64,000 nt of DNA from an uncultured archaeon (GTDB lineage: Archaea > Thermoproteota > EX4484-205 > JAAOZP01). Where the stretch lies: positions 112 through 64,111 of the forward strand of contig CALIBN010000017.1 of the NCBI GenBank assembly GCA_938045545.1. Direction: 5' to 3'. Positions 1,536 through 21,564 of this stretch are shown here, piece after piece. Position 1 is the stretch's first letter. Each line of letters opens with the position of its first letter. The notes under the pieces were generated by a model, which saw only the letters and a list, made by a program, of their open reading frames with translations, did not search any database and was not told where the DNA came from. Position numbers and translations under genes: made by a program.

Positions 1536-1597
1536 TATTCCCCGCCTTCTTAATAATGCTGATTAGCGTTTATTAAAGCCTTTCTTCAAGAAATATG

Positions 1598-3510: not shown

Positions 3511-3837
3511 ATGGTGAAAGAAATGTGGCTAATAGTCTCTTGGTGGGCCGCGATATTGGCGACAGCTGCGTACATTTACTCTAAAAATCCCAAGGCATAC
3601 CGCTTGGACTGGCTCTGCCTGATGCTCTGGGGACTGGCAGTGATGGTGCTTATCGACCACGTTATCGGCTTCGCCACTGAGGGAGGGGAATTCATAGAAA
3701 TATCCACGGAGGGATACATCGAGAACGGGGCGTTGCTTGGAATTACGATGTTGATACCGATATTCCTAGCCTGGGAGATAGGCGTACTTATCTTCAGGAG
3801 GAAAACGTTGGCCTCAGAAAGCTCGGGAGGGAGGTGA
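3511..3837 (+). CDS. small integral membrane protein (paralog A)
   Basis: 108 aa with 3 predicted TM helices. It shares a 'LWG..LAV...DH/EH' pattern with the adjacent ORF. A palindromic operator-like site lies upstream. Confidence 0.45.
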   Translation: MVKEMWLIVSWWAAILATAAYIYSKNPKAYRLDWLCLMLWGLAVMVLIDHVIGFATEGGEFIEISTEGYIENGALLGITMLIPIFLAWEIGVLIFRRKTLASESSGGR

Positions 3838-3843
3838 ACGGCC

Positions 3844-4188
3844 ATGGCATGTTTCTTGGCACCGATGGCATTAGCCGTTCTAACGAGCCTCTTTAGAAAG
3901 AAGGTTCCCAACATCCTGATGATCGATGTTCTAAACCTTCTACTGTGGGGCGGAGTGTTGGGGCTGGCTGTTGAACACTTCTCCCACGGAGAAGTAGTGC
4001 CCTATCCCCCGTTCCTGACGAAAGGGCTTGAATACGTTATTCCTGAAGTGATAACCATCGGTTTCCCCATGGTGATGTCCGTATCGGGAGTCTGGGCATT
4101 CACCGTTTTAATGGTAAATGGTCCCCTCAGCAAGCTCCTTAAACCAAGCAGGCTCGGTATAGCGGGTGTTTCCCAGGCTCAAAAATAA
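3844..4188 (+). CDS. small integral membrane protein (paralog B)
   Basis: 114 aa, starts 7 nt after the previous ORF. Same TM organisation and shared motif, so a tandem duplicate. Confidence 0.45.
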   Translation: MACFLAPMALAVLTSLFRKKVPNILMIDVLNLLLWGGVLGLAVEHFSHGEVVPYPPFLTKGLEYVIPEVITIGFPMVMSVSGVWAFTVLMVNGPLSKLLKPSRLGIAGVSQAQK

Positions 4189-4218
4189 CCCCTTTTTAAT
4201 CCTTTTTTAATTGTTAAT

Positions 4219-5247: not shown

Positions 5248-5476
5248 GCATACTATTACTTAAAAATTTCCTATTCTTCCAACATTTAAGGTTTAATCAA
5301 ATTTCTACTCAAAGCCTTTCGCGACTACAACAATCTACTAAAAAGGTGATAAAGAGTGATGTTTAAGTGCATCATATAAGGAAAGAACTTTTCTTCGGAT
5401 TCGGCGACAGATATCCACGCTACGAAGGTCTCAAAGAGGATGCATATAGCTTTTTACGCTTTTGAAAAGCATTTTG

Positions 5477-6460
5477 TCACACGTGGCCGAAAACAGGTTT
5501 AGGCCTGTAGGGTTCCTCTAAATACTTGATCTCGTCATCCCGAAGCCTGACTTCCAGTGCTTCAACAGCCTCATCAACATGCTCAGGCTTAGTCGTCCCT
5601 ATTATCGGAGAAGTAGCCCCCTTATAGTAAAGCCAGGATAATGCTACCTGTGCTGGTTTCACTCCCTTGTTTCGAGCTAACTCTATCACTCTGCCAACTA
5701 TCTCGGCGTTTTCAGGAGGCTCTATGTATGTTCTGTATTCAGGAGTATTAGGCTGTAGCCTGCTGATGTCTGTTTCAGCGACCACCAGCTTACCATTCTT
5801 AAAGTACTTTCCTGAAAGGACGCCTGCCGCCGTAGGGCTCCACGGTATTAACCCAATGTTCTCGCTCCTGCACAAAGGAATCATCTCCCTCTCCTCCTCC
5901 CTGTAAAGGAGATTGTAAACGTTCTGCATGCTCACAAATCTTTCATAGCCCAGCTTATCACTGACGTAAAGCGATTTAGCGAATTGCCATGCCCACATGC
6001 TCGAGGCCCCTATATACCTGACCTTTCCCTGCCTAACTAGTTCTGTAAGAGTCGACAATGTTTCCTCGATAGGAGTCTCGTAATCCCACCTGTGTATCTG
6101 GTACAGGTCTATATAGTCGGTGCCCAGCCTTCTCGCGGATTCCCTGAATTGATGCATAATGTGCTTCCTGGAAAGCCCTCTCTGATTAGGTTTATCTCCC
6201 ATCGCTCCGAAAACCTTGGTCGCAATAACAACGTCTTCCCTGACTTCTTTTAATGCTTCTCCTAAAATCTCCTCAGACCTTCCGCGTGAGTAAACATTGG
6301 CGGTGTCAAAGAAGTTAACACCTAGGTCTAAAGACCTGTTGATTACTTTTTTTGCTTCCTCCGACTCAACCATCCACTCGCGAGCGTTTCCGAAGGACAT
6401 GCATCCGAGGCATACTCTAGACACTTTTAATCCGGATGAACCCAGTCTAACGTACTCCAT
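5477..6460 (-). CDS. aldo/keto reductase family oxidoreductase
   Basis: 'MEYVRLGSSGLKVSRVCLGCMSFG...GVNFFDTANVYSRGRSEEILGEAL' is a typical aldo/keto-reductase N-terminus, and 327 aa fits. Confidence 0.85.
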   Translation of the reverse strand: MEYVRLGSSGLKVSRVCLGCMSFGNAREWMVESEEAKKVINRSLDLGVNFFDTANVYSRGRSEEILGEALKEVREDVVIATKVFGAMGDKPNQRGLSRKHIMHQFRESARRLGTDYIDLYQIHRWDYETPIEETLSTLTELVRQGKVRYIGASSMWAWQFAKSLYVSDKLGYERFVSMQNVYNLLYREEEREMIPLCRSENIGLIPWSPTAAGVLSGKYFKNGKLVVAETDISRLQPNTPEYRTYIEPPENAEIVGRVIELARNKGVKPAQVALSWLYYKGATSPIIGTTKPEHVDEAVEALEVRLRDDEIKYLEEPYRPKPVFGHV

Positions 6461-7900: not shown

Positions 7901-10900
7901 TTGCAGCAGACAGATTCGAAACAAACTATAAGCAGGATAATTAAGAGAGATGGTAGAGTAGTGGATTTCGACAAGAGCAAGATTACTGAGGCAATATGGA
8001 AAGCGATAAAGTCTGTCGGCGGCAATGACAGGGCCCTAGCGGAGAGGCTTTCAAACCGGGTTGTTGAACGCTTAGAGAGGCAGCTGAAGCCCGGCGAGAT
8101 TCCTCACGTTGAGCAGGTTCAAGACCTGGTTGAGAAAGTGCTTGTTGAGAACAATCTTTACAATGTCGCTAAAGCATACATTCTTTACAGGGCGCTTCAC
8201 GCCCAGATAAGAGAGTTCGTCGACAGCTATCTTGAGAACAAGAGCTGGCTGGTGAAGGAGAATGCTAACACAACATACTCGCTACAGGCTTTAAACTTCC
8301 ACATTTCATCTCAAGTTATCTCACAATACTGGCTTCACAGGATTTTCAACAAGGGTAGGACTGAAATAAGGGAGGCGCATTTAAACGGGGATTTCCACAT
8401 CCACAACCTCGGGATACTTGGGGCGTACTGCGTGGGGTGGGATCTAAAGGACTTGTTAACTACCGGCTTCAAGGGCGTCAGGGGAAAGGTTTCAGCCAAG
8501 CCGGCAAGGCATTTTCGAGTTGCTCTTGGCCACGTCGTCAACTTCATCTTCACATTACAAGGAGAGGCTGCTGGTGCCCAAGCCTTCTCGAACTTCGACA
8601 CTTACCTAGCCCCGTTCATAAGGTATGATAGCCTTGACTATAAGTCGGTTAAGCAGGCTCTTCAAGAATTCATGTTCAACATGAACATACCCACTAGGGT
8701 TGGCTTTCAAAGCTTATGCGGGGATGAGCCGATAATTGTAAAGGAAAAGGGTAAAATCAAAGTTATAGAAATCGGCAAGCTGGTTGACCGTGAATTTGAG
8801 AAATATCCTCACAAGGTGATTGAGCAAAATCCCCATAGCTATGCCTTAGAGAATCATGATGATTACCAAGTTTTATCCTTCAATCCCGATGGGAAGGCTG
8901 TTTGGACCAGGGTTAAGGCGTTCATAAGACATAGAGTTCCTAAGAACTCGGAATTCGTAAGAATTAGAACTAATCGCGGCGAGGCGAAAGTTTCAAAAGC
9001 TCATTCCCTCTTCGCCTTCTCAAAATTCAACGGTAAGTTTAATCCAGTGCCAAAGTCAGCTGAGGATGTTAAGATAGCTGATGATTACCGTCACTTAAAC
9101 GAGGAAAACCACTTCATCGCATTAAGGTCCTTGGACAATCAGGGTGAGAAAGAGGAAATAGACTTGGTTGAGATTATAGATGAGCTCCCCGGTCTTCAAA
9201 AGAATGTTTTCGTCAAGATAAACCCAACGCATACATTGAGGAAAATCAAACAAAGGGCCATTTTAGAGGAGCAGAGCCTTATCCCATTCTACAAGGAGTT
9301 TGGGCTTAAGGACAGGGGTGTGTGGGAAAGTTGGTTGGAGAGTAAATCGATTAGATACGATATCTGGAGGAAATACGGAGGGCTTAACATGAAAGCCGAA
9401 TTTAGGCTCAAGAACAGTGACGTATGGTATCCTAGATTTCTAAAAGGGAAACTGTTAGAGAACTTCGTAAAACTTTGCGCATGGTATATTTCCGAAGGTC
9501 ATACAGCCATTTCTACCCCGCTCTATATTTCCCGATTGCCTTCCGGAAACGCTAGGGAGATCGTCAAGCTCTTAAAGGCTTTAAACGCCTTGGGTCAAGT
9601 AGCCCGCAACAAAGGGTATTCTAGGAATGGAGGAAAGACTAAGACAGTTCTAAAGATAACTGGAAAAGGTCTTTTAGCTGAAATCGTTAGTAAAACCTGC
9701 GGCTATTTGTCTTTCAATAAAGTAGTCCCATGGTTTATCTTTGATCTTTCTCCAAAATATCAGAGGATCTTCATTGAAACAGTCTTGAAAGGCGATGGGG
9801 CAGAATATCAAAAGTATTGGGATTATTCAACTACTTCTGGAAAACTATGTGCAGGACTATGTCTGCTTTTAAGTCAAAACAAATTTAGATTCGCCGTTTA
9901 TACTGAAAAAACCAGTAGGAATAATGAAAAATGGCGAGATGGATTCGTAATTCGAATCTTCAAAGAAAATTCGATACCGAAGAAAACATACTCCGTTAAC
10001 GACTTCGAGGCTAGGGTTTGCCTAGGGGTTGAAAAATTCAACTACGAGAGGGAATACGAATACGATATTTCAGTCAATCTGCCCCAGGAAAACTTTGTTG
10101 GAGGAGCTGGACTCTTGGTCTTCCACAACACGCCTTTCTCGAATGTGACGCTCGACCTTAAGGTTCCAAGCTTCATGGAAGACGAGCCGGTTGTAGTGGG
10201 TGGGGAGATTTTAGACGCTACCTACGGCGAATTCCAAGAAGAGATGAATATTTTCAACAGGGCTCTGGCTGAAGTGATGCTCGAGGGAGACGCTAGCGCA
10301 CGCGTTTTCACTTTTCCAATCCCAACGATAAACATAACTAGGGATTTCAACTGGGATGATGAGATCGTTAGGAAGGTTCTAGAGACTTCTGCGAAGTATG
10401 GTATCCCGTATTTCGCGAACTTCATTAACTCCGACATGAATCCTGAGGATGTTCGCTCAATGTGTTGCCATTTGAGGCTTGACAAAAGGGAATTGAAGAA
10501 GAGAGGTGGAGGGCTTTTTGGAGCAAACCCGCTGACAGGCTGTTATGACGAAAATACGGAAATTTTGACGGAGAAGGGTTGGAAGTTATTTAAAGATTTG
10601 TCTATGAATGATAGGGTGTTTACCTTGAATGAGAATAACGAGATCGAATTGCATCACCCCACGAGACTTTTCGAGTACGAATATGACGGCGAAATGATTC
10701 ATTTCAAGTCAAGGTCTCTGGACTTGTTGGTTACGCCGAACCATCGCATGGTAGTCGACACAGCTAATGGAAAGAGGGCGTTCGTCGAGGCAAGAGATTT
10801 CATACCCAATACTCACCGCATTCCTAAGGGAGGGATCTGGAAAGGCGAAGAAAAAGAATATTTTGTCCTGCCTCCAGTGCCAATATTGCAGGGCAGCGGT

Positions 10901-12631
10901 CCTGAATCAAAGTTATCAGCTGAGCAGCTCGCTCTCATCAGAAAACTGAGAAATGAAGGAAAGGGTATTTATCAATTGGCAAAGGACTTCGATTGTAATC
11001 CGGTAACGATTCTCAACGTTTGCAATGATGGAGGATACGGTAATCGAGAAAGGGTAAGAGTAATATCAGTGGCTCCTCCTTTGAAAGTGAAAATGGACGA
11101 TTGGTTAAAATTCTTCGGCTTTTGGCTGGCTGAGGGTTCAACCGATAATGAAAAAATAGCTAAGAGACATGGCTATAGAGTGGTGATTTCTCAAGTTGAC
11201 AGAAAGAAGAGAGAGGAAATCGAGAACGTCTTGAGGAGGCTACCGTTCCACTATCGTGAGGAAAACTTCAATTTAGTGATTTACAACAAACAGTTGTGGA
11301 ACTATCTTAGGCAATTCGGAAACGAGTTCACAAAATTCATCCCGGAAGAAATAAAGAGATTGGATAGAAAACAGTTGAAGATCCTGTTCGACTGGATGAT
11401 AAAGGGAGACGGCCACGTGAGAAAGGCCACAGGCCAGATAAGCTATTGGACGTCTTCTAAGAAGTTAGCGGACGATTTGCAGGAAATAGCCCTAAAATTG
11501 GGATATATGGCGACCATCTCTACCGTGAAGAAAAAAGCCTCGGAGATGAACGGAAGGCGATTGGTCTCAAACGCCGTCTATGTGATCGGGATTCAAAAGT
11601 TGAGACACTACAGGCTACGGGAACAAAATATAAGGAGGGTTCGCTATCGCGGAAAGGTATACTGCTGTGAGGTAGAAAATCATACGGTGTTCGTGAGGAG
11701 GAACGGAAAGGTCAGTTGGTGCGGAAACTCGATAGGTGTTACCACGATAAACATGCCTAGGATAGGGTTTTTGTCGAAGAGCGAGGGAGATTTCTTCGCC
11801 AGGCTTGACAGGATGATGGTTCTCGCAAAAGACGTGCTAGAGATTAAAAGGAAATGGCTTGAGAAGTTTACTGAGGCCGGTTTATACCCGTATTCCAGGT
11901 TCTACCTGAGGCATGTTAAGGAGGCTTTCGGCTCCTACTGGAAGAACCATTTCAGCACGATAGGCTTAATCGGCATGAACGAGGCCTGTTTAAACTTCCT
12001 AGGATACACTATCGGTGACCCCGAGGGCCTCAGCTTCTCCATTAAAGTTTTAGACTTCATGAGGAAGAGGCTCCAAGATTTCCAGGAGGAAACAGGCAAT
12101 ATTTTCAACCTTGAGGCTACTCCTGCCGAGGGGACCTCTCATCGGCTCGCTAGGCTAGATAAGAAAACCTACCCTAGTATAATAGTTGCGAACGAGGAGG
12201 AGGTCAAGAGGGGCGCCGCGCCGTACTACACGAACTCTACTCACCTCCCAGTTTACTACACCGACGACCTATGGGAATACCTTCGACTCCAAGACCCCCT
12301 CCAGACGAGATACACGGGCGGAACGGTTGCACATATCTGGCTCGGCGAGAGCAACCCGCCGGTCGAGTCGGTCGCAGCGCTCGTGAGGAAGGTCTGCGAA
12401 AACTTCAGGCTCCCCTACTTCACGCTTACACCGACGTTCAGCATCTGCCCAGAAGACGGGTACCTCAGTGGGGAGCAGCCCACGTGTCCGAAGTGCGGAA
12501 GGACCACGGAGGTCTACTCGAGAGTTGTAGGATATCTAAGACCTATAGACCAATGGAACTTGGGTAAGCAGGAGGAGTTTAAGCAGAGGAAGACTTTCGA
12601 CAAAGCCCTCAGCAGGAAACTCGTTGTTTAA
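7901..12631 (+). CDS. nrdD: anaerobic ribonucleoside-triphosphate reductase (class III, NrdD) with N-terminal ATP-cone; host of two inteins
   Basis: TTG start preceded by aGGAGGg. The N-terminal ATP-cone is 'ISRIIKRDGRVVDFDKSKITEAI'. The C-terminus has a zinc ribbon (CPEDG...CPKCG) and the glycyl-radical motif 'SRVVGYLRP'. With both inteins removed the extein is about 700 aa. Confidence 0.8.
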   Translation: MQQTDSKQTISRIIKRDGRVVDFDKSKITEAIWKAIKSVGGNDRALAERLSNRVVERLERQLKPGEIPHVEQVQDLVEKVLVENNLYNVAKAYILYRALHAQIREFVDSYLENKSWLVKENANTTYSLQALNFHISSQVISQYWLHRIFNKGRTEIREAHLNGDFHIHNLGILGAYCVGWDLKDLLTTGFKGVRGKVSAKPARHFRVALGHVVNFIFTLQGEAAGAQAFSNFDTYLAPFIRYDSLDYKSVKQALQEFMFNMNIPTRVGFQSLCGDEPIIVKEKGKIKVIEIGKLVDREFEKYPHKVIEQNPHSYALENHDDYQVLSFNPDGKAVWTRVKAFIRHRVPKNSEFVRIRTNRGEAKVSKAHSLFAFSKFNGKFNPVPKSAEDVKIADDYRHLNEENHFIALRSLDNQGEKEEIDLVEIIDELPGLQKNVFVKINPTHTLRKIKQRAILEEQSLIPFYKEFGLKDRGVWESWLESKSIRYDIWRKYGGLNMKAEFRLKNSDVWYPRFLKGKLLENFVKLCAWYISEGHTAISTPLYISRLPSGNAREIVKLLKALNALGQVARNKGYSRNGGKTKTVLKITGKGLLAEIVSKTCGYLSFNKVVPWFIFDLSPKYQRIFIETVLKGDGAEYQKYWDYSTTSGKLCAGLCLLLSQNKFRFAVYTEKTSRNNEKWRDGFVIRIFKENSIPKKTYSVNDFEARVCLGVEKFNYEREYEYDISVNLPQENFVGGAGLLVFHNTPFSNVTLDLKVPSFMEDEPVVVGGEILDATYGEFQEEMNIFNRALAEVMLEGDASARVFTFPIPTINITRDFNWDDEIVRKVLETSAKYGIPYFANFINSDMNPEDVRSMCCHLRLDKRELKKRGGGLFGANPLTGCYDENTEILTEKGWKLFKDLSMNDRVFTLNENNEIELHHPTRLFEYEYDGEMIHFKSRSLDLLVTPNHRMVVDTANGKRAFVEARDFIPNTHRIPKGGIWKGEEKEYFVLPPVPILQGSGPESKLSAEQLALIRKLRNEGKGIYQLAKDFDCNPVTILNVCNDGGYGNRERVRVISVAPPLKVKMDDWLKFFGFWLAEGSTDNEKIAKRHGYRVVISQVDRKKREEIENVLRRLPFHYREENFNLVIYNKQLWNYLRQFGNEFTKFIPEEIKRLDRKQLKILFDWMIKGDGHVRKATGQISYWTSSKKLADDLQEIALKLGYMATISTVKKKASEMNGRRLVSNAVYVIGIQKLRHYRLREQNIRRVRYRGKVYCCEVENHTVFVRRNGKVSWCGNSIGVTTINMPRIGFLSKSEGDFFARLDRMMVLAKDVLEIKRKWLEKFTEAGLYPYSRFYLRHVKEAFGSYWKNHFSTIGLIGMNEACLNFLGYTIGDPEGLSFSIKVLDFMRKRLQDFQEETGNIFNLEATPAEGTSHRLARLDKKTYPSIIVANEEEVKRGAAPYYTNSTHLPVYYTDDLWEYLRLQDPLQTRYTGGTVAHIWLGESNPPVESVAALVRKVCENFRLPYFTLTPTFSICPEDGYLSGEQPTCPKCGRTTEVYSRVVGYLRPIDQWNLGKQEEFKQRKTFDKALSRKLVV
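8711..10129 (+). mobile_element. intein 1 in NrdD (473 aa, LAGLIDADG homing-endonuclease type)
   Basis: Block A 'SLCGDEPIIVKEKGKIKVIEIG' begins with Ser. The C-terminal 'LLVFHN' is followed by +1 Thr. Internal LAGLIDADG-like motifs are 'KLCAWYISEGHT' and 'IETVLKGDGAE'. The flanks rejoin as 'RVGFQ|TPFSNVT'. Confidence 0.75.
10541..11728 (+). mobile_element. intein 2 in NrdD (396 aa, homing-endonuclease type with HTH)
   Basis: Block A 'CYDENTEILTEKGWKLF'. LAGLIDADG-like 'FFGFWLAEGST' and 'LFDWMIKGDGH'. The C-terminus 'ENHTVFVRRNGKVSWCGN' is followed by +1 Ser. The penultimate residue is Gly rather than His, so the C-terminal boundary is approximate. Confidence 0.6.
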
Positions 12632-13447: not shown

Positions 13448-14311
13448 TCATTCCTTTAGGATTTTCTTCTTAATCATCTCGGCGACTGGCGCTGGACTGA
13501 TATCCTTGTAGGGCTCTATACCCGCCTCCGTGATCCTGACTAGACAGCAGGCCATGGATGGTTTTGAAAGCGATTTCTCCAGAATCACTGCCTTAACTTC
13601 CTCGCCTAGGCTTGTGGAAACCATCCTGAGGATGTTCTTGCTCATGTAAACGAGGTGCTGTCCCCCGATCACGTCGAACTCCCTGGCGCCGAAGCCAGCC
13701 TCCGGGTCTATTGGGAAACTCTTCTTATCTATGCTTTCCGCCATCTCCCTCCTAGACTTCTCTTGAAAACTCCTGGCGGCTTCACTCCTCCGCCAGCTCG
13801 TTATTAAGAGAAGCGACTCGTAGCCCGTCGCCATTCCCACGAGAGTGTTAACTTCCAACGATAGCTTGCCTTGAAGGATCCTTGCTGTGGAGGCCAGATG
13901 TTGAGTAGGCGTGTTCAAGAGCTGTGCGTGATAGTGGGGAACCAGTGAGTCGACGATGATAAGCACCGGGGCCCAGTCGTTCTTATCCACCTCTCTAGGT
14001 ATTGTCTCGACTATCGCCTTGTGTTGCTCGAAGAGGCCACTAGCCTGGTACATCTTAATTCTGGACAGAGCTTCCTCCCTAATGCCCCTCTTCAAGCATA
14101 TCGTCTTTAAGCGGTCGGGGTCCCATTCCTCTGTTTTTACAACTATTATCACATCCCTCTCTCTGCAGCCCTTTAAAGCCTCAGCCACCAGGGTCAGGGA
14201 AATGGTGGTCTTACCGGTTCCAGGGCTCCCGTAGACCAGGTTTGAAACACCAGTTGGAAGGCCTCCGGTTAGCTCGTCCAGTGGCTTAATACCTGTGCTT
14301 AACTTCCTCAT
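13448..14311 (-). CDS. KaiC/RadA-like RecA-superfamily ATPase
   Basis: 'GIKPLDELTGGLPTGVSNLVYGSPGTGKTT' is the KaiC/RadB-type N-terminus with Walker A. Walker B is 'VLIIVDSL'. 287 aa. Confidence 0.75.
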   Translation of the reverse strand: MRKLSTGIKPLDELTGGLPTGVSNLVYGSPGTGKTTISLTLVAEALKGCRERDVIIVVKTEEWDPDRLKTICLKRGIREEALSRIKMYQASGLFEQHKAIVETIPREVDKNDWAPVLIIVDSLVPHYHAQLLNTPTQHLASTARILQGKLSLEVNTLVGMATGYESLLLITSWRRSEAARSFQEKSRREMAESIDKKSFPIDPEAGFGAREFDVIGGQHLVYMSKNILRMVSTSLGEEVKAVILEKSLSKPSMACCLVRITEAGIEPYKDISPAPVAEMIKKKILKE

Positions 14312-15537
14312 TCCGATCTGCCCTCCGTAAGAACCAAGAGTTGTCTCTCCCCCTCCTGAACCTGTCTTAGATAACCCTGCCTCATGAGCGCAGCAAGGGC
14401 CCTGAGACCTTCTGCACCCAACGAGGCCCTTACCTCTTCTGTGAACTCGTTCAAGCTCGCTTTTCCACCCGACTCCTCTAGCTTCCCGATTATCTTAGAT
14501 CCAGCCTCGTAGAACTCGCCAAGCCTCTCCCTCAGCTCGTCATCAGAGCTTAAGACTTTCATGACTGGTTTACGGGCTTCCCTCTCCTTCTCGCTAAGGG
14601 GCTTAAGGAGAATGTTCACAGGAGCCTCTGCGAAGCCATACTCCCCATTCTTAATGAGGATAAGCATGAAGTAGTTTGAAGCATCCCTCTCGGGCATGTG
14701 GCCCATCCTCCATGGGTTAACGGCTTCAGAGGGAGGCGAGAAGACTACAGAGTCAAGGTTCTCCAAAATCCTTTCGGAGACCTGTGATAGGTTTTTCTCC
14801 GCGAATATTATCGAATAGCCTTTCCTCTCCAGCTCTCCGATTAAAGACTCTTCAACGAAGAGTTTAGCATTGTCAAGCCTCCTGTTTCTCGGCCATATCA
14901 AGCTTGGATAGGTTATGATTATAAGCGTCCTGCGTTTAGGTTCAAGCTGAGCGAGCTTCGCCAGCATCAAAAGCGTTGCGAAGACCTTGTGCGAAGCTAT
15001 TGTAAACCCGGAGAGGTCGAGGACCATCCCCAGCTTCAAAACATCACTGAACTCCGTTGCTTCTTTTCTGCCGAAGGCATGCCTCAGGGTTCCGAAGGTG
15101 AATGGTTCGAAAGGCGTGTAAATCGATAACCCGCCCTCCGGGGTCTCGAAGTCAAGCCTTGAAGCGATCTCAGGTATCGTGGTTTCCGAAAACCTTAGTA
15201 CATCATCCAAGAGCGCTTTCGCCACAATGGCCTTCACGTTGAAAGCTCCAAAGCAATAGTCAAGTATCTCAACAACCGATTCGATGTATTGCTCAACCTT
15301 TTCACGGTTCGGAGGTTTAATTGGATTTAAGCCATATTTGACAACATCATAGTATCTCGTCGTACCCATCCTTGCCACGCAGCTAAACTCATCGTTTAAA
15401 TCGAGCAGGATTATCTTCGCGTCCTTAAACACGTCTTTAAGTAGGTACACGAGAGCAGCTTTGAAGTTGCTCCCGGCTATGCCTATCCTCACAGATGCCT
15501 GCAGCAATCCTAGGCTCTGCTCACGCACAACCCTCAT
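14308..15537 (-). CDS. hypothetical protein, possibly a degenerate P-loop-like domain; operon partner of the KaiC-like ATPase
   Basis: 409 aa. Overlaps its neighbours on both sides by 4 bp. 'RIGIAGSNFKAAL' resembles a Walker A that lacks the GK[ST]. Confidence 0.45.
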   Translation of the reverse strand: MRVVREQSLGLLQASVRIGIAGSNFKAALVYLLKDVFKDAKIILLDLNDEFSCVARMGTTRYYDVVKYGLNPIKPPNREKVEQYIESVVEILDYCFGAFNVKAIVAKALLDDVLRFSETTIPEIASRLDFETPEGGLSIYTPFEPFTFGTLRHAFGRKEATEFSDVLKLGMVLDLSGFTIASHKVFATLLMLAKLAQLEPKRRTLIIITYPSLIWPRNRRLDNAKLFVEESLIGELERKGYSIIFAEKNLSQVSERILENLDSVVFSPPSEAVNPWRMGHMPERDASNYFMLILIKNGEYGFAEAPVNILLKPLSEKEREARKPVMKVLSSDDELRERLGEFYEAGSKIIGKLEESGGKASLNEFTEEVRASLGAEGLRALAALMRQGYLRQVQEGERQLLVLTEGRSE

Positions 15538-16898
15538 TTCAGCACCCTCACCCCCCGTTGGGAGACCAGGATAGTCCTCCGCTCCAGTGCAAACCCTCTG
15601 GACGGTAGGAGCGACTCGATCAACTCCTTTTTGCAGTCCATTAGGATGATGTTGTCCGCTTCAAAGCTTGAGCGTATCCATGGTTTTTTCAGCGTCAGTA
15701 TCTTAATTGGGGCCTTCACGTCAAGGTTTTCAGCAAAGCCTCTAAACCAGATAGCGGCCAGGGGTTTAGATGATGTTTTCTTAAGCAAGGCTTCATCAGA
15801 GGGTTCGTTGGCGTAGACTACTTCCATCCCATCGTGGTGCCTATAAGTCTTAACGGGCTTCTTACGCAGCCTGTTCTTGCTAAGCTTGAAACCCCTCTCA
15901 ACAAGCTTCCTTTTTATCTCGTCCCCGGCATCCTCAGATGTCCCCTTAACGTCCACTACGATGGCCATCGAGTTCCTCCTCAACTGCGAGAGACATAGCC
16001 GGAGGGCAAGGTCCTCTGCATCCCTTCTCTCACCAACTATTAGTAGCCTCCCCGCTAGCCGACTAGTGTTTAGATCGAGTAGCTCGGGGACCGGTATTAC
16101 GTAGGGCTTCAGGGAGAGCCACTCTTCCAAAGCTTTCCGTAAACCCTGCCCAGAGCCCGGTCCTGCTCCCTTCAGGATCTTTTTGAACTCCTCCAGGGCC
16201 TGCGGATTATCCGAAGCAACTTCAACCTTCATTAATTGCCTGCTGGGTTTAGCCTCACAGAGAATAGCAATATTGCCTGTTACGCTCTTTCCGACAGCTT
16301 CTACGAAAGAAGACAGACTCCCCTTGAGTTTAAGTGTCTGACGATGCTCAAAGGACTCCATAAAGGCATCTTCAGGGAGCTTCCGATGGAACCTTGCCTT
16401 CCCCATTAAGACTTTTAGTAAACCTCCTAGGCCAAACCCGTGAAGGAAAGCAACTTTAGGAACCGGTGCAAGCGACAGAAGAATCGTGTGGTCTTCAGGT
16501 TGGACAGCCTCTTCCTTGCATACTATCCTTAGCTCACTCAGCCTAATCTTAGCGTTCAGAGACTTGCGAGTGACGAAGACAACGCAGAGGAATGTTGCTA
16601 TGAATCCTATTTGAGTATAGTGCTTGATACGGAAGAAAGCTAAGAAGAGCGCTGACATCAACCAGATTAGCAGGAAGGAGAATGCCCTTTTAAAGACCCT
16701 TCTCACGTTGTCCTTAAAGTACTTTCTCGGAAATAACAGGGACATAGTCAAGAACGCCATCACCGCTATAGAGATCAGGCTCGTCAGGCCTCCTAGGTCT
16801 AAGCCGAAGGGGTACACGATGGAATCTAAAAGCCTCTTAACCAGGCTCCCCAACAGAAGTACTGCAGCGAGCTTCAGGACGGTCTTAATGATGCTCAT
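15534..16898 (-). CDS. membrane-anchored protein (4-5 N-terminal TM helices plus a cytoplasmic domain)
   Basis: 454 aa. N-terminal hydrophobic helices, then a soluble domain with 'GRLLIVGERRDAEDLALRL...MAIVVDVKG'. First gene of a three-gene overlapping operon. Confidence 0.5.
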   Translation of the reverse strand: MSIIKTVLKLAAVLLLGSLVKRLLDSIVYPFGLDLGGLTSLISIAVMAFLTMSLLFPRKYFKDNVRRVFKRAFSFLLIWLMSALFLAFFRIKHYTQIGFIATFLCVVFVTRKSLNAKIRLSELRIVCKEEAVQPEDHTILLSLAPVPKVAFLHGFGLGGLLKVLMGKARFHRKLPEDAFMESFEHRQTLKLKGSLSSFVEAVGKSVTGNIAILCEAKPSRQLMKVEVASDNPQALEEFKKILKGAGPGSGQGLRKALEEWLSLKPYVIPVPELLDLNTSRLAGRLLIVGERRDAEDLALRLCLSQLRRNSMAIVVDVKGTSEDAGDEIKRKLVERGFKLSKNRLRKKPVKTYRHHDGMEVVYANEPSDEALLKKTSSKPLAAIWFRGFAENLDVKAPIKILTLKKPWIRSSFEADNIILMDCKKELIESLLPSRGFALERRTILVSQRGVRVLK

Positions 16899-17212: not shown

Positions 17213-17767
17213 TTGGACGCTTTTTTAAAGACGTTGCCAAACGAAGGCGAGAAACTGGAACTGGAGCCGGAGAAACTCAACATGATAAAGGCTGCAGCTG
17301 AGCCTCACAGGATGAGAATATTGGTAAAACTGCTAGAGAAAGAGGGCACTATTACATCGCTATCCAAATCCCTCAGTTGTTCCAAACAGCTTTTAATCCA
17401 CCACCTTGAGGTTCTCGAGAAGAACGGGCTCGTCTCGAAGAGAAGGGTTGAGAACGCTGAGGTCTATAGTATTAGTGAAGCCGCCAAGACTATAGTCTCG
17501 GAGGTCTTGAAAATGCATTTAAGAATCGGAGAGGCTGAGGGCCCTGAGGCGGGCGCTGAGAGACGCATGGTTACTGCACCGGCTCTAAGAAGGCCAGCAT
17601 CCCTTCTGAAACTCATACCCCTGATCATTGGAATATCCGTAGCACTCTTCGCATCAGCCAGAGGGATCCTAGAAGGACAACCCCTGTGGATCCTCAGCGG
17701 AACATTGGTCGGCATCTGCCTCTACGCGATCGTTTCAAAGCTAATCCGGTATGCGCTAACCTCATAG
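17213..17767 (+). CDS. ArsR-family winged-helix transcriptional regulator with C-terminal TM segment
   Basis: 'HRMRILVKLLEKEGTITSLSKSLSCSKQLLIHHLEVLEKNGLV' is an ArsR/SmtB-type HTH. The C-terminal hydrophobic stretch is 'LIPLIIGISVALFASA...LWILSGTLVGICLYAIV'. Confidence 0.6.
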   Translation: MDAFLKTLPNEGEKLELEPEKLNMIKAAAEPHRMRILVKLLEKEGTITSLSKSLSCSKQLLIHHLEVLEKNGLVSKRRVENAEVYSISEAAKTIVSEVLKMHLRIGEAEGPEAGAERRMVTAPALRRPASLLKLIPLIIGISVALFASARGILEGQPLWILSGTLVGICLYAIVSKLIRYALTS

Positions 17768-17917
17768 CATGGATAATGAGGTGGGAACAGACTCGCGCGC
17801 TGTATAGTTGAATATCCCTTTTAAAAATGCTGAGAAAAGCGAGGGTTTAAAGCGTTTGAAGGAACTTGATAATTTATTCCGGTCAACTTTTTAAACATGT
17901 CAGCAGTGTGGTAAACC

Positions 17918-19387
17918 ATGCGTCTACTTGAGCAGAAGAATCTGGAGAAGATAGGCATAGTGGCCAGTGATTCGAGTGAAACCAGGGCTAAGCTCCTCCT
18001 AGAGGAGGAGAAGGAGCTTAAGGTTAGGGCTGAGGAGATCATCGTTATCGACACGCCCATGGGGGAGGTTCTTGGCGTTCTTAGAAGCGGCAGCGGGGTT
18101 AACGAGGCTCTCAGGGCAAATGCTTACAGGCCGAGCGTTGCTTACGCTAAGAAGGGTGGAGTCCCCTCAGGAGCCAGGGAGATATATACTTTCGAAATAA
18201 TGGTGATAGGGGTTTTGACTGAGAACGGGGTTGAGCAGAACCGCATGATAATACCTCCTAGAAGCAACGTCTACATTTTTAAGCCAGGCGTCTCCAATCC
18301 TCTTGAACACGTTGCGAGAAACAAGCCGGTTGTCTGGAACGCTTGTCTCGAGGGCCATGAGGATTGGAGAATACCTTTCGACAGCTCCTTCCTACCGTAC
18401 CATATCGGCGTGTTCGGCGCAACGGGAAGCGGAAAGTCTTGGCTGACAAGATTTGTCCTGGTCCCAGTCCTCTTGGAGTCAGGCTTCAAGGTTCTGGTTC
18501 TAGACTGGAGTGGCGAAGATTATGCTCCATACTACAAGGATAAGGCGGTTCCCATCTCCTACCTTAGGCTAGACGAGGAGGCGATAGTGAGATACATTCT
18601 GGAGAAGGCTGAGCACTTCGGCTACACTGGCCAGGCTAGAGATTCCAACCCTGTGAGGGAGGCTCTGGAGGACTATGTTTCGAGAAGATGGGAGGAGATA
18701 AGCCAGAAATCGTCTGAGGAAATGTTCCTAGACATGAAGAACCATTTGGAAAACGGTGTTAGACAGTCTTCAACAAGAGAGGATTTTAAGAGGATTGCTC
18801 TACGCCGGCTGGAGTACGGTTTCAAGAAGCTTAGGCCGATCGACCTGGAGGCCGTCAGGGGCTCGTTAAGCATCGAGGAGCTAGTGGAGGATTTGAGGAT
18901 GGAGGAGAAGGGTCTTAGAGTTGTCGACATGAGCCTGGTTGGGAGTGACGAGAAGCTCTCCTTCTTCAACTCTCTCGCAAGGTTTCTCGAGGAGGGGATG
19001 GAGCTGGGGGAGTCGCTCGGCGTCGCGCTGGTGATAGATGAAGGACCACAGTACGCCCCATGGGAGCCCAAGGGAATACAGTACGAGTCCACTGAGCACA
19101 TTAAGAACCTCTGCGCCCTCGGGAGGAAACACAGGCTTTGCATCGTCTTAATATCGCAGGGGATCGCTGGAGACATAGGTATAAACGCTGCCGTAAGAAG
19201 GAATCTTAACACGCAGTTCTTCGGAGCCCTTCACCCGCTCGACATGCAGGAGGCTGACAACTGGCTTAAGCCCTACGGGATTCAGAGGGAGTATCTTCTT
19301 TCACTGAAGCCGGGCCAGTTCTACTTCGTGGGGAAAGCAAATCCGTCGCCGATACCTCTCCTGATATCTTTCAAGCCGGTGAAATGA
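17918..19387 (+). CDS. HerA-like ATPase (FtsK/HerA superfamily, HAS-barrel plus P-loop)
   Basis: Walker A 'HIGVFGATGSGKSWLT', Walker B 'ALVIDEGPQY', and 'LCIVLISQ'. The N-terminus is HAS-barrel-like. 489 aa. Confidence 0.75.
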   Translation: MRLLEQKNLEKIGIVASDSSETRAKLLLEEEKELKVRAEEIIVIDTPMGEVLGVLRSGSGVNEALRANAYRPSVAYAKKGGVPSGAREIYTFEIMVIGVLTENGVEQNRMIIPPRSNVYIFKPGVSNPLEHVARNKPVVWNACLEGHEDWRIPFDSSFLPYHIGVFGATGSGKSWLTRFVLVPVLLESGFKVLVLDWSGEDYAPYYKDKAVPISYLRLDEEAIVRYILEKAEHFGYTGQARDSNPVREALEDYVSRRWEEISQKSSEEMFLDMKNHLENGVRQSSTREDFKRIALRRLEYGFKKLRPIDLEAVRGSLSIEELVEDLRMEEKGLRVVDMSLVGSDEKLSFFNSLARFLEEGMELGESLGVALVIDEGPQYAPWEPKGIQYESTEHIKNLCALGRKHRLCIVLISQGIAGDIGINAAVRRNLNTQFFGALHPLDMQEADNWLKPYGIQREYLLSLKPGQFYFVGKANPSPIPLLISFKPVK

Positions 19388-19393
19388 TACGCG

Positions 19394-20581
19394 ATGGCTT
19401 CTGAAACAGCGTGGAGCAAGCTTCCCATAGATCTTCAGGAGCAGTTCTACGAGAGGGCGGAGAGGGAGGCGCGTAGGCTTACAACCGTCATACGGGATTT
19501 AAGGTCTAAGATAGAGCTGGCTAAGAATAAGTTGGAACCGTACGTGCGTCGGTTGGAGTTCAAGGCTTCCGGGGATTTCTCGATAGCTGCCGTCGACGGT
19601 TCCTTCTCGCCTAGGCCTGCTGAAACTATTGGCGCAAGGTTCACAGTATACTCTGCAGGCTTCATGATGGTGAAGGGTAGGGAAATAGTTAAGGAAGGTT
19701 TTTTCTCAGGAGGTGTGCGTCATGATCATGCTCACAGCAGGGATTTTTCCAGCGCTGTCCTACACGTGCAGGGATCCTATTTGGAGAGGAGAGCCGCCTT
19801 GGAAGCCTTAAAGGAGGATCCGGACCTGCTGCTTCTAGACGGAAGCTTCCTTGGTTTTGCATACTCTCTCTTCAGAGTTAGAAGAATAGTCCCAGTGCCC
19901 CAGTGGATAGTCGACACAGCTAGAGAAACCTTGGAGGCGACGGAGAAGCTTCTGGACTCGGGGAAGTGCGCTGGAGTGGTTAAGAGAGGGAGGAGCAGGG
20001 CCATAGGAGGCTGGTTGTCAATCGAGGAGGGCGGTAAAAGCCCTTTAACAGACTGCCTAGACAAGCAGATTTTACACTACCTTATGAAGCCTCCTTCAAT
20101 CCTTAACTATAGGGAGCTTCTGAAGCAGCCGGGCCTCCAGAGAGCCTACAGCAGGGTTAGCGAGCTGCTGGGCCGAGGCGGTTTAAGCCCTAAAGATGCT
20201 TTTGAGCAGGCTATGAAGTGGGTTGTTGAAAGCCTGACGAAGGCTCTAGACGTGTCCGATGAAACAGCCTTAAGGCTTGAATCCAGAATAAACAGGGTTC
20301 AAATAAAGGTTAGCGCTGAGAATCCTCCTTTCGAGCTTGAAGTACCGGTTGAATCTGAAGATAAAGTGTTAAGCGTTCTCTTCTCGAGCGTCGACAATTT
20401 TAACATGGCGACGGGCCTGCCTCTCGCAATAGATCTTGTTGATGAAAGCGTCACGCTGCCCGCTGAATTTACGGGGGAATTCGTAAGGGAGGTTGAGGCC
20501 AGGATCGTTGACTCCTACGATGGGGATCTTGAGGAAGTTAAAGGGTTTTTCACAGCTATGAATCCTCAGAAAGAATTTTAG
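19394..20581 (+). CDS. NurA-like 5'-3' nuclease
   Basis: Sits immediately downstream of the HerA-like gene, separated by 6 nt. 'FSIAAVDGSFSP' matches the NurA catalytic 'DGS' motif region. 395 aa. Confidence 0.5.
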   Translation: MASETAWSKLPIDLQEQFYERAEREARRLTTVIRDLRSKIELAKNKLEPYVRRLEFKASGDFSIAAVDGSFSPRPAETIGARFTVYSAGFMMVKGREIVKEGFFSGGVRHDHAHSRDFSSAVLHVQGSYLERRAALEALKEDPDLLLLDGSFLGFAYSLFRVRRIVPVPQWIVDTARETLEATEKLLDSGKCAGVVKRGRSRAIGGWLSIEEGGKSPLTDCLDKQILHYLMKPPSILNYRELLKQPGLQRAYSRVSELLGRGGLSPKDAFEQAMKWVVESLTKALDVSDETALRLESRINRVQIKVSAENPPFELEVPVESEDKVLSVLFSSVDNFNMATGLPLAIDLVDESVTLPAEFTGEFVREVEARIVDSYDGDLEEVKGFFTAMNPQKEF

Positions 20582-20613
20582 CCTTTTATACTTAGGTTTT
20601 ATACGTCTATGCG

Positions 20614-21564
20614 TTGGAAAGCATTATTCTTGCCCATGGGGATTGCGACGGGGTCTGTGCGGCCTCAATAGTTCTAGCTGCAAGGAGAAATGCTAAAGTG
20701 GTGTTCACAAACCCTGCTGGTCTTCTGTCAGAGCTTAGGTCTATCGAAGCCGGGAGCATCATAATACTGGATGTAGCGTTAACTTCGAAACATAAGGATG
20801 GGATAGCCTCAGAGTTTAAGAGGCTTGGTTCGAGAAACGAGGTTGTCTACTTGGATCACCATCCTCTTCCTCAAGGACTAGGCTTGAGTAAGCTGCCTGT
20901 TAAGACGCTTAAACGAGTTAGGGGTGCGTGCTCCTCTGAGCTTGCCTACACTTATTTTAAGGATTGGCTGGAGCCTGAGATGAGCAGGGTTGCAATCTAC
21001 GGCGCGATAGGAGACTATAGTGATGACACGCCCGGGGTTAGAAGGATGTTGGAGAAATGGGATAAGAGGGAGCTCTACTTGGAAGCCGGGATCCTGGTGG
21101 CCGCGCTGGAGGGTGTTAGAAGGAGGGATTTCGATTTCAAGAGGAGCCTCGTCAACTATCTTTCTGAAAACAGGCTTCCAAGCGCTGATAGAAGCCTGGT
21201 TGAAATGGCTTTACGCGAGTCAGAGAGGGATGAGGAGATGCGCCGCCTGGTGAAGAGCATGGTGAAGACTCATGGCAACGTATCGTACGTTACGAACCTG
21301 GAATGGTCTCTTGGGAAGGCTGCGACCTACGCTAGGGCTTACGGCGGCACAATAGTCGGGGTGGCGGCTGAAGAACAGGGTGAGAACATTGATCTGAGCA
21401 TCAGGTCCGTGGGCTTGAAAAATCTCTACAGTGTTGTGTCTAGGGTTGCCGGAGAGCTCGGAGGGATCGGTGGTGGGCACGCTAACGCGGCTGGAGCAAG
21501 GATTCCAAGGGGGAAACTCTTAGAATTCGTAGAAATGCTCGACGAAGGGCTTGCAAAAATTTAG
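20614..21564 (+). CDS. DHH-DHHA1 family phosphoesterase (NrnA/RecJ-like)
   Basis: DHH motif I 'AHGDCDGVCAAS', motif III 'YLDHHP', and the DHHA1 'GGIGGGHANAAG' motif. 316 aa. Confidence 0.75.
   Translation: MESIILAHGDCDGVCAASIVLAARRNAKVVFTNPAGLLSELRSIEAGSIIILDVALTSKHKDGIASEFKRLGSRNEVVYLDHHPLPQGLGLSKLPVKTLKRVRGACSSELAYTYFKDWLEPEMSRVAIYGAIGDYSDDTPGVRRMLEKWDKRELYLEAGILVAALEGVRRRDFDFKRSLVNYLSENRLPSADRSLVEMALRESERDEEMRRLVKSMVKTHGNVSYVTNLEWSLGKAATYARAYGGTIVGVAAEEQGENIDLSIRSVGLKNLYSVVSRVAGELGGIGGGHANAAGARIPRGKLLEFVEMLDEGLAKI

Follow-up and report, generated by a model that had tools for sequence, protein, structure and literature searches.

The herA-nurA gene pair described here most likely represents a divergent yet widely conserved HerA-NurA lineage devoted to DNA-end processing, and not a new defense system. 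It comes from an uncultured hot-spring archaeon of the Brockarchaeota and lies in a stretch of 64,000 nucleotides that was analyzed as a whole (the window). Archaeal DNA-end resection is known almost wholly from the Mre11-Rad50-linked HerA-NurA pairs of Sulfolobales and Thermococcales. The present locus is the version found in Brockarchaeota, Bathyarchaeia, many Nitrososphaeria, and Korarchaeia, several of which are uncultured or little-studied groups; learning whether these archaea resect DNA ends chiefly with this pair or keep it as an ancient paralog for another task would shed light on the initiation of homologous recombination in much of Thermoproteota.

The herA-nurA pair and its products

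A sequence-only reading of the stretch had placed four open reading frames, encoding an ArsR-like regulator, a HerA-type ATPase, a NurA-type nuclease, and a DHH-DHHA1 protein, at the following coordinates. All four are present there, and the identities proposed for the last three hold up in Pfam and, for HerA and NurA, in the predicted folds.

13448-16898, minus strand: divergent accessory block next to the ArsR gene
17213..17767, plus strand: ArsR-type HTH regulator with two C-terminal TM segments (184 aa; HTH_5, 1.3e-7)
17889..17896, plus strand: TTTTTAAA, a TATA-box-like element found by eye about 22-29 nt 5' of the herA ATG
17918..19387, plus strand: herA-like gene (489 aa; PF01935, HerA central domain, 4.1e-17)
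19394..20581, plus strand: nurA-like gene (395 aa; PF09376, 27.2 bits against a gathering score of 21 bits)
20614..21564, plus strand: small DHH-DHHA1 phosphoesterase gene (316 aa; DHHA1, 3.1e-11; DHH, 7.2e-6)

Read off the sequence, the spacing between herA and nurA is 6 nt, as had been claimed, and 32 nt separate the nurA stop from the DHH start. To the eye alone, TTTTTAAA may be the herA-nurA promoter. The Pfam scan of the window was confined to ORFs of about 286 aa and longer: all five of at least 800 aa and most of those of 286-610 aa, two of 318-343 aa excepted. None of the scanned ORFs encodes a Metallophos, SMC_N, or AAA_23 protein, in agreement with the earlier statement that Mre11 and Rad50 are absent; as far as these ORFs go, the locus does not fit a canonical herA-mre11-rad50-nurA operon.

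The RecA-like core of the HerA protein, the region recognized by PF01935, carries an arginine finger besides Walker A (GATGSGKS, residues 167-174) and Walker B (D374 E375); T169 G170 G172 K173 S174, D374 E375, and R427 R428 are invariant columns across 24 sequences. The AlphaFold2 (AF2) model (pLDDT 88) displays the three-domain HerA fold, namely, an N-terminal HAS-type beta-barrel (~9-121), the RecA-like core, and a helical-bundle insertion (~220-328). The barrel is seen in the model despite the lack of a match between the window HerA and the Pfam HAS-barrel model, and a conserved loop within it (62-86) falls in a low-confidence region. The top Foldseek match, over the full length, is T. kodakarensis HerA (9x1m_A, 8e-22), and S. 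solfataricus HerA (4d2i) is likewise matched over the full length (3e-21, TM 0.68-0.72). By analogy with these proteins, from which the ring and the translocation are borrowed, the window HerA is a predicted hexameric FtsK/HerA-type dsDNA translocase.

The fold of the 395-aa protein had been singled out earlier as the point to check, and a NurA fold is indeed present according to AF2, Foldseek, and PF09376 alike. The model (pLDDT 91) adopts an RNase H-like fold, with S. solfataricus NurA as the top Foldseek match (2ygk, E 1.2e-10, TM 0.68 on target) and T. kodakarensis and P. furiosus NurA as the next best; the best eleven PDB matches are all NurA or NurA-like proteins (2ygk, 9x1m_G, 3taz, 8wfd_G), followed by EndoV. 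Five acidic residues (D68, E131, D149, D347, and D350), candidate metal-binding residues of the active site identified from the alignment and lying in DGS / E / DGS / DxxD contexts, are invariant in 23 sequences, as are the terminal L10 P11 L14 Q15 and N390-K393.

In 76 of 86 related loci, nurA is the next gene after herA; the gaps have a median of 1.5 nt and are no longer than 30 nt in 96% of cases, and the pairing is therefore not due to chance; NurA and HerA are thus genomic partners in the sense of gene adjacency. The related loci span Brockarchaeota, Bathyarchaeia, Nitrososphaeria, and Korarchaeia, between which HerA identity is 44-50%, and the pair is also found in Methanodesulfokora and Caldarchaeum. 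A scan of species-representative genomes yielded 171 confirmed matching stretches, and among 1.84 billion representative proteins the HerA family is sharply delimited (at least 429 bits, followed by a gap). The immediate neighbors across these loci are mostly housekeeping genes, and neighbors at other loci of the family include those for primase, GINS, PolD, ligase, MetRS, ThrRS, and SOD. In the Brockarchaeota clade, the same downstream order recurs (CBM96 surface protein, CBS, GH4, and THUMP methyltransferase) with congruent divergence, and the Bathyarchaeia loci share the THUMP methyltransferase and nitroreductase neighbors with that clade. The herA-nurA pair is thus a tight two-gene unit with core-like conservation in a stable chromosomal setting.

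Gene identities, folds, motif conservation, pairing, and distribution are established here; that the two proteins form a complex, what they act on, what they do in the cell, and whether the DHH protein is coupled to them are inferred. The pair is probably a two-gene DNA-end processing operon, with the DHH gene only a clade-local neighbor and the ArsR gene outside the unit. Such a translationally coupled operon would encode a helicase-nuclease machine shared by archaea throughout the GTDB phylum Thermoproteota, the cultured Thermoprotei excepted. By analogy with S. solfataricus, T. kodakarensis, and D. radiodurans, the HerA hexamer would dock the NurA dimer on its N-terminal barrel face, and ATP-driven HerA would pump duplex DNA ends into NurA, which would digest the strands, presumably in double-strand-break and replication-fork processing. 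The Brockarchaeota pair, like almost all members of the lineage, would be genomically uncoupled from Mre11-Rad50, and the DHH protein, having become a neighbor only in this clade, might at most provide a lineage-specific clean-up of single-stranded products. This account is supported by bona fide archaeal HerA and NurA being the best fold matches, by the invariance of the Walker, arginine, and acidic residues, by the tight pairing, core-like conservation, stable chromosomal setting, and absent defense signal, and by the precedent for stand-alone HerA-NurA resection in D. radiodurans (PMC12977600). It is weakened by the remoteness of the lineage from the biochemically studied pairs, by the defense-like settings of some members, by the occurrence of two copies (L039 and L061, 43% identical) on at least one Nitrososphaeria contig, and by gene-precise allelic replacement of nurA. 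In the latter, two nurA alleles that are ~63% identical have been swapped gene-precisely between genomes with herA more than 90% identical, with the recombination breakpoints at gene boundaries; such replacement would be uncommon for a nuclease with a purely housekeeping role.

Possible paralogy and lineage-specific partners

The suggestion that the pair is a paralog of the Mre11-Rad50-coupled one gains some support from two observations, the sequence distance from the textbook operon and the noncanonical nature of a relative in a Sulfolobales MAG. With the HerA profile, S. solfataricus HerA reaches just 26.7 bits and its T. kodakarensis counterpart 18.5 bits, and a search by sequence with the NurA profile matched no solved NurA. 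Because the sequences are very remote from those of the biochemically studied pairs, it is fold and architecture that carry the transfer of function. The Sulfolobales MAG has a remote HerA relative, accompanied by its own NurA; this HerA scores 142.7 bits to the family but only 49.7 bits against S. solfataricus HerA; it is clearly not a canonical HerA orthologue, and these scores suggest paralogy with the canonical pair. The canonical, essential operon is presumably also present in that MAG, so that the window lineage could be a paralog of ancient origin with another function. Vulcanisaeta, like Sulfolobales, carries remote relatives of the family.

No Mre11-like ORF is found near any of the 86 related loci. 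In 6 Nitrososphaeria loci, a short Rad50-like gene (SMC_N, 51-58 bits, with a CxxC hook) lies directly 5' of herA-nurA; these loci constitute one subclade and were counted as a link to the recombination machinery.

Together, these data leave room for a tentative reading, to which we give appreciably less weight, in which an ancient lineage paralogous to the Mre11-Rad50-coupled pair would supply a general dsDNA-end engine with lineage-specific partners and a RecBCD-like dual role, i.e., repair and the destruction of foreign linear DNA. If this were true, the lineage would be marked by the NurA C-terminal NPQK and the conserved HerA barrel loop, and its recruited partners would be the RecJ-like DHH protein in Brockarchaeota, the short Rad50-like protein in some Nitrososphaeria, Lhr along with an EVE-domain protein in one subclade, and, in a second, a DNA methyltransferase together with a Cas4-like nuclease; in Nezhaarchaeales the partners would be cas and pAgo islands. 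The swapping of ~63%-identical nurA genes as cassettes between near-identical herA backgrounds would then reflect conflict with mobile elements.

Neighboring genes and defense-like settings

The sequence-only reading had grouped herA, nurA, and the DHH gene into one three-gene module. The DHH protein has all the motifs of the DHH/DHHA1 phosphoesterases (RecJ/NrnA superfamily), with motifs I-IV and the DHHA1 GGGH intact and the residues H8 D10 D12, D53, D81 H82 H83, D134, and G286-H289 invariant in 22 sequences, its Pfam DHH score falling just under the cut-off. Against the PDB, the family profile best matches archaeal RecJ 5x4i (1.7e-18), GAN 5ghr (2e-15), and MjaRecJ2 (7e-13), and NrnA weakly (5e-5); the entry 5x4i, which is of the archaeal RecJ type, was deposited as an "uncharacterized protein". 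The archaeal RecJs and GAN (here that of T. kodakarensis) share the DHH and DHHA1 domains and all catalytic motifs with the window protein, which is NrnA-sized (316 aa), without the additional domains found in archaeal RecJs of 430-500 aa. Equivalence to archaeal RecJ/GAN was rejected on this difference in length and on scores below every NCBIfam RecJ cut-off (RecJ_archaeal, 63 bits against 360; GAN, 37.5 against 850). The protein is a predicted minimal RecJ-like phosphoesterase of a widespread housekeeping kind.

A single DNA-processing module of all three genes, which would replace the Mre11-Rad50-dependent steps and in which the DHH protein might, for example, degrade the displaced 5' strand or NurA-released oligonucleotides, would fit the shared strand, the intact catalytic motifs, the closeness to RecJ/GAN nucleases rather than NrnA, and the thematic coherence of the combination with end resection. 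We nevertheless regard it as rather unlikely on account of its distribution. All 15 loci in which the DHH gene adjoins nurA belong to the Brockarchaeota clade, where HerA identity is 80% or higher, and the short gap of 10-63 nt in 14 of these is offset by one of 820 nt in L009. Already in L018 (73% HerA identity), herA-nurA is followed directly by the CBM96 gene, and ~60 other loci of the family have no adjacent DHH gene. Conversely, DHH orthologues (40-50% identity) in Methanomethylicia, Thermofilum, and Methanocellales have no HerA or NurA nearby and instead occur in unrelated housekeeping contexts, after a Vps4-like ATPase gene, after TBP, or before PgpA. TATA-like elements directly upstream of the DHH start and the recombination breakpoints at gene boundaries also speak against a single unit. 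The three-gene context, when followed into other genomes, is confined to one small clade.

A link between the ArsR gene and herA-nurA, which the earlier reading had noted as neighbors, fares no better. The ArsR protein (HTH_5, 31.8 bits, above 22; NCBIfam HTH_metalloreg NF033788, 46.6 bits, below 55) has two hydrophobic segments by hydropathy (~127-153 and 156-178). Its gene co-occurs in 8 loci with divergent genes for RadB-like, 409-aa, and 454-aa proteins and is absent from the remaining loci of the Brockarchaeota clade; in two loci another gene intervenes between it and herA. It would accordingly be a member of the neighboring accessory four-gene block, regulating that block and not herA-nurA. 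The three-gene cluster and its ArsR neighbor are local synteny and no new system.

The earlier reading had further raised the possibility of a defense module. In such a module, an anti-virus or anti-plasmid effector in place of a repair machine, the HerA motor would feed foreign DNA to the nuclease in the manner of TdpAB or of the SIR2-HerA and DUF4297-HerA systems. There are grounds for such a reading: HerA motors recur in defense systems and are close fold matches, and TdpB is among the fold matches of NurA (8wfd_G, 6.6e-7). Some members of the family also occur in suggestive settings: one from Nezhaarchaeales lies in a CRISPR-Cas and pAgo island, between cas6/cas4/cas1/cas2 and a further cas2; that of Korarchaeum is found among HEPN/nucleotidyltransferase genes; a DNA methyltransferase gene and a Cas4-like nuclease gene flank the members of one subclade; and in one subclade EVE-domain genes adjoin the pair. 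The nurA allelic dimorphism could likewise mirror conflict-driven diversification. We nonetheless judge a defense role to be quite improbable, as the repair HerA and NurA outrank the defense proteins as fold matches, a search of 2.9 million viral contigs turned up no relatives, the window contains no CRISPR array, and a slow-evolving HerA in conserved synteny across whole classes, with a stable flank and mostly housekeeping neighbors, contrasts with the patchy distribution typical of defense genes. PADLOC yielded partial, generic matches to HerA only (mad8, 4.9e-13; HerA models matching over the Walker A region alone), none to NurA or DHH, and no system-level match at the locus; the similarities of neighbors in other lineages to mad2/mad3 are confined to catalytic domains. 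The known HerA anti-phage systems (SIR2-HerA, DUF4297-HerA, TdpAB, MADS, and CRISPR type III-associated HerA) were rejected since their cognate partners are absent; the genes next to the window pair encode no SIR2, DUF4297, methyltransferase, or Cas partner.

A role as a CRISPR-adaptation accessory, for which the Nezhaarchaeales member and the CRISPR-linked NurA-HerA paralogs of Pyrobaculum (PMC3396285) might be adduced, is scarcely credible, since only 1 of ~90 loci examined has cas neighbors, the window lacks a CRISPR array, and none of its scanned ORFs has a cas domain.

Comparison with known HerA systems

TdpAB, SIR2-HerA, and DUF4297-HerA combine a HerA hexamer with a nuclease or NADase effector and are good fold matches to the window pair; the HerA profile scores 47 bits against DUF4297-HerA, above its score against S. 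solfataricus HerA. In contrast to these, its effector is a full NurA that best matches repair NurAs, and its conservation and synteny are core-like. Thermoproteales carry several vertically inherited NurA-HerA pairs that resemble the canonical proteins only weakly by Pfam and BLAST score (Bernick et al. 2012, PMC3396285). Pyrobaculum has three such pairs, and those of Thermoproteales include a CRISPR-associated nurA-csm6-herA cluster (PMC3396285); unlike this cluster, the window locus lacks csm6, cas genes, and a CRISPR array.

The HerA-NurA of Deinococcus-Thermus is, like the window locus, a two-gene unit with no adjacent Mre11-Rad50. The D. radiodurans HerA is a clear fold match to the window HerA model (7wrw, 9e-17), yet the bacterial HerA is ~100 residues longer, and no specific sequence relationship was detected. 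This stand-alone unit has been proposed to be a minimal end-resection machine (PMC12977600), but its in vivo role is ambiguous, as T. thermophilus knock-outs are more UV-resistant (PMC7776575).

The best structural matches come from the canonical HerA-NurA of S. solfataricus (SSO2251/SSO2248), T. kodakarensis, and P. furiosus, in which both folds are the same. The canonical HerA shares the N-terminal barrel, RecA-like core, and helical bundle of the window HerA, both pairs have intact Walker motifs and adjacent, co-oriented genes, and the invariant acidic residues of the window NurA may correspond to those of the canonical one. However, mre11 and rad50 lie between herA and nurA in the classical operon, whereas the latter two genes are contiguous in the window locus, and the family is set apart by its own invariant HerA loop (56-88) and by the LPxxLQ and NPQK motifs at the N and C termini of NurA.

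Gene organization and predicted folds of the herA-nurA pair

The tight pairing of a HerA-type gene with a NurA-type gene, 6 nt apart and followed by a small DHH gene, which the sequence-only reading had described, is borne out by both the ORFs and their Pfam matches, as is its statement that neither Mre11 nor Rad50 stands beside the cluster, in that no Mre11- or Rad50-type domain was found among the window ORFs scanned. Together with the upstream regulator, the genes share one orientation:

17213-17767, plus strand: ArsR-type HTH protein, 184 aa (Pfam HTH_5, 1.3e-7)
17918-19387, plus strand: HerA-like protein, 489 aa (PF01935 HerA central domain, 4.1e-17)
19394-20581, plus strand: NurA-like protein, 395 aa (PF09376, 27.2 bits; cut-off, 21 bits)
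20614-21564, plus strand: DHH-DHHA1 protein, 316 aa (DHHA1, 3.1e-11; DHH, 7.2e-6)

The DHH gene begins 32 nt after nurA and is separated by 57 nt from the next gene, which encodes an 851-aa CBM96/Ig-like surface protein. The window DNA is archaeal, and its closest relatives are hot-spring Brockarchaeota/Thermoproteota MAGs. The HerA of "Ca. Brockarchaeota" isolate GD2_1 (locus L006) is 98% identical to that of the window, and the DHH protein has an identical copy, in the same gene order, on a 14-kb Logan contig (L086); no exact match to the window NurA protein is on record. Genes with inteins lie elsewhere in the window and encode an anaerobic ribonucleotide reductase, NrdD (7901-12631, which also has a LAGLIDADG domain), a secretion/pilus ATPase of the T2SSE type (49429-52638), and a radical SAM (HMPTM-type) enzyme (54821-57226). 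The gene for a second DHH-family protein (388 aa; PF01368, 1.7e-7; 61811-62977, minus strand) follows ~40 kb further downstream than the first. The 98%-identical GD2_1 scaffold tracks the window to the last base of herA (L006 11471, window 19388) and then runs into an inverted nrdD region; the break falls precisely on the herA/nurA boundary and reflects either a rearrangement or a mis-joined scaffold.

Single-sequence searches of solved structures with HerA or NurA returned no match, and the NurA family profile (alignment A1) recovered no NurA among them; hence, structure prediction was needed. The HerA family profile (alignment A2) retrieved DUF4297-HerA (1.3e-11), another defense HerA (1.8e-9), and the HerAs of S. 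solfataricus (2.2e-5) and T. kodakarensis (6.6e-3). AlphaFold2 models made from the family alignments reached a pLDDT of 91 for NurA and 88 for HerA. The best fold match of the NurA model is S. solfataricus NurA (2ygk, 1.2e-10), followed by T. kodakarensis NurA from its complex with HerA (2.7e-9), P. furiosus NurA, and TdpB, with EndoV and RNase H far behind. Thus, the assignment of the 395-aa protein to NurA is upheld by its modeled fold. The HerA model matches the HerAs of T. kodakarensis (8e-22) and S. solfataricus (3e-21, TM ~0.7), with anti-phage HerAs, TdpA, and D. radiodurans HerA ranked next. In the family alignments, the Walker A and B motifs and the arginines of HerA are invariant, as are D68, E131, D149, D347, and D350 of NurA. 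Features specific to the family are the invariant termini of NurA, with LPxxLQ at the N-terminus and NPQK at the C-terminus, and a barrel loop of HerA (residues 56-88), which is near-invariant across classes (R56, G58, G60, Y70, P72, G80, E88). This loop, modeled at a pLDDT below 50, may be a lineage-specific element contacting the partner or DNA. The folds, the conserved motifs, and the pairing of the genes suggest a mechanism in which a HerA hexamer would feed duplex DNA ends to a NurA dimer.

Distribution of the family and its changing neighbors

When one genome of each GTDB species was scanned with the family HerA, 171 stretches were confirmed to encode a relative. The best 80 of these, retrieved for context work, come only from Thermoproteota, broadly defined (Brockarchaeota, Bathyarchaeia, Nitrososphaeria, Korarchaeia, Methanodesulfokora, Hecatellales, Caldarchaeum, and Conexivisphaera), with identities across those classes of 44-50% for HerA and 30-38% for NurA. 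The family is sharply bounded in sequence space: among 1.84 billion representative proteins, its profile reached 11 full-length clusters at 429 bits or more and one at 313 bits, with the rest at 179 bits or less, and 807 proteins scored an E value of 1e-3 or better. In 76 of 86 loci whose ORFs were called locally, searched with HMMs, and clustered, NurA comes after HerA, the median gap being 1.5 nt. A motif regex for Mre11 run over these loci returned only two small (~250 aa) phosphoesterases and no Mre11-like ORF. Directly before herA, six Nitrososphaeria loci of a single subclade carry a short Rad50-like gene of 541-585 aa (at ~8.2-10.0 kb in L054, L061, L074, L080, and L082, and at 2.4-4.0 kb in L058); its products score 51-58 bits against SMC_N and have a coiled coil with a CxxC hook, there is no adjacent Mre11, and an HMM built from these genes and run over the related loci matched only the six themselves.

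The neighbors of the pair are mostly housekeeping genes. THUMP-methyltransferase and nitroreductase neighbors are common to the Bathyarchaeia and Brockarchaeota loci, which points to an old, stable chromosomal neighborhood; in other loci the pair is found near primase, GINS, PolD, ligase, and MetRS genes, ThrRS, an Lhr helicase with an EVE-domain gene, or SOD. The commonest of the 113 immediate neighbors counted are THUMP methyltransferases, nitroreductases, SMC_N proteins, ThrRS, and transporters, along with DNA methyltransferases and EVE proteins, four of each. In one subclade (L033, L041, L045, L052), the EVE-domain gene (~150 aa) lies directly upstream of herA, with an Lhr-type helicase downstream of nurA in two of these loci (L041, L045).

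Conservation of the three-gene herA-nurA-DHH context did not extend beyond close relatives. The DHH gene follows nurA in 15 loci, all within the Brockarchaeota clade whose HerA is at least 80% identical to that of the window; in L018 (73% identical), nurA is followed directly by the CBM96 gene with no DHH gene between. DHH orthologs of 40-50% identity are widespread in unrelated contexts, for example, downstream of a Vps4/CdvC-like ATPase (Methanomethylicia) or of TBP (Thermofilum) and upstream of PgpA (Methanocellales), and the adjacency to nurA is thus recent and local. As TATA-like elements precede the DHH start, even cotranscription with nurA is uncertain. All DHH and DHHA1 motifs are invariant in the family alignment, and the family profile matches 5x4i (1.7e-18; archaeal RecJ-type, deposited as an uncharacterized protein), T. 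kodakarensis GAN (2e-15), MjaRecJ2 (7e-13), and, weakly, NrnA (5e-5); the 316-aa protein scores under all RecJ equivalog cut-offs. This RecJ-like phosphoesterase would be a co-located housekeeping gene.

The ArsR protein, which has two C-terminal hydrophobic segments and which the sequence-only reading had placed next to the cluster as a membrane-tethered regulator, tracks a different set of genes. It is always accompanied by three divergently transcribed genes with overlapping stops and starts:

within 13448-16898, minus strand: RadB/KaiC-like ATPase, 287 aa
within 13448-16898, minus strand: 409-aa protein without a Pfam, NCBIfam, or PADLOC match
within 13448-16898, minus strand: 454-aa membrane protein with N-terminal membrane segments, without a Pfam, NCBIfam, or PADLOC match

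The possibility that the 409-aa and 454-aa proteins are degenerate HerA-like ATPases was rejected (hhalign probabilities of 9% and 2%). ArsR and the block occur together in eight Brockarchaeota loci, with a peptide ABC transporter or nothing in their place elsewhere; in two loci a 603-aa membrane protein lies between ArsR and herA. A separate TATA-like element lies 22-29 nt before the herA ATG. ArsR is most plausibly a regulator of the accessory block, and both would be unrelated to the herA-nurA operon.

Defense-like settings and exchange of nurA alleles

Defense-like settings are a minority of the family loci. In Korarchaeum, HEPN/nucleotidyltransferase pairs lie beside a family member. In a Nezhaarchaeales MAG (L092, 2203-16190), the pair is embedded in a CRISPR-Cas locus with csx1, two cas1 genes, cas2, a csm6-like gene, csa1/cas4, and cas6, followed by another cas2 and by a cluster with a short Piwi (pAgo) gene. 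L083, a 5.6-kb contig, holds a second family copy in MAG GD2_1, the same MAG as the closest relative of the window, in the order N6/N4 DNA methyltransferase, HerA, NurA, and 474-aa PD-(D/E)XK Cas4-like nuclease (341-5592). The Cas4-like gene accompanies the pair in L083 only; a DNA methyltransferase adjoins the pair in L065 and is one gene away in L049. The tetranucleotide correlation of L083 with the window is 0.72, versus 0.93-0.95 for same-clade loci, and its GC content is 43.5% versus 49%; such an intermediate composition would fit either a foreign island or mis-binning. PADLOC models of the MADS system matched HerA (mad8), neighboring THUMP methyltransferases (mad2), and the Rad50-like genes (mad3), and one neighbor gene product of the related loci scores 3.5e-55 against mad3. 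The Rad50-like genes score as well against LmuB as against mad3, and a MADS link was rejected upon per-protein inspection, which revealed only generic catalytic-domain or SMC-head similarity. A viral or mobile origin of the pair was rejected, as no family relatives were found in viral contigs, and a CRISPR association at the window locus likewise, as the 64-kb window has no CRISPR-like arrays or Rfam matches (nor any tRNAs). The proposal of a defense module in the window found nothing at the locus in its favor; a defense role is possible for the lineage as a whole.

A distinct pattern concerns nurA itself. Genomes with HerA 90-96% and DHH 66-88% identical carry two types of NurA, one of 395 aa (the window, L009, L011, L012) and one of 403-406 aa (L007, L008, L010, L013), which are 88-93% identical within and 62-64% between types. 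At the DNA level, an identity of ~90% falls to 58-79% over precisely 19394-20581 and is regained within the DHH gene. The 403-aa type is also present in L015, a more distant species with HerA 79-81% identical to that group, and both types keep the catalytic motifs and conserved termini. This is a gene-precise allele exchange, which may stem from balancing or diversifying selection or from simple import by recombination.

Relation to the canonical HerA-NurA systems

We regard it as fairly probable that the window carries a translationally coupled herA-nurA operon for a DNA-end-processing translocase-nuclease, typical of Thermoproteota outside the cultured Thermoprotei, with a housekeeping RecJ-like phosphoesterase after it and an unrelated accessory block with ArsR upstream. 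By sequence comparison, the family is remote from every characterized HerA and NurA. Several observations suggest that it is a separate, old lineage and not a direct ortholog of the S. solfataricus/T. kodakarensis pair. First, a HerA relative from a Sulfolobales MAG (P0335) reaches 142.7 bits with the family profile versus 49.7 bits with S. solfataricus HerA; the NurA after it has the NPQK motif near its C-terminus and matches the family NurA profile at 34.9 bits, and there is no Mre11 or Rad50 nearby. In cultured Sulfolobales, the canonical operon is present and essential, as reported in papers referenced by PMC7776575 and PMC8708640. Second, in six Bathyarchaeia loci (L023 7338-10105; also L034, L037, L042, L051, and L057), a second pair of inverted gene order, NurA2-HerA2, lies one gene downstream of the family pair, and HerA2 (56.7 bits, 1.5e-14 against S. 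solfataricus HerA in a single-sequence search) is nearer in sequence to that protein than the family HerA is. Third, two family copies, 43% identical, are found on one Nitrososphaeria contig. A neighbor-joining tree that lacks support values and has its outgroup on a very long branch is of descriptive use only. Neither Mre11, Rad50, HerA, and NurA nor their KOs are named in the supplements of the Brockarchaeota paper. For Thermoproteales, several NurA-HerA pairs of vertical inheritance are already on record (PMC3396285), and stand-alone herA-nurA units in Deinococcus-Thermus are regarded as minimal resection machinery (PMC12977600).
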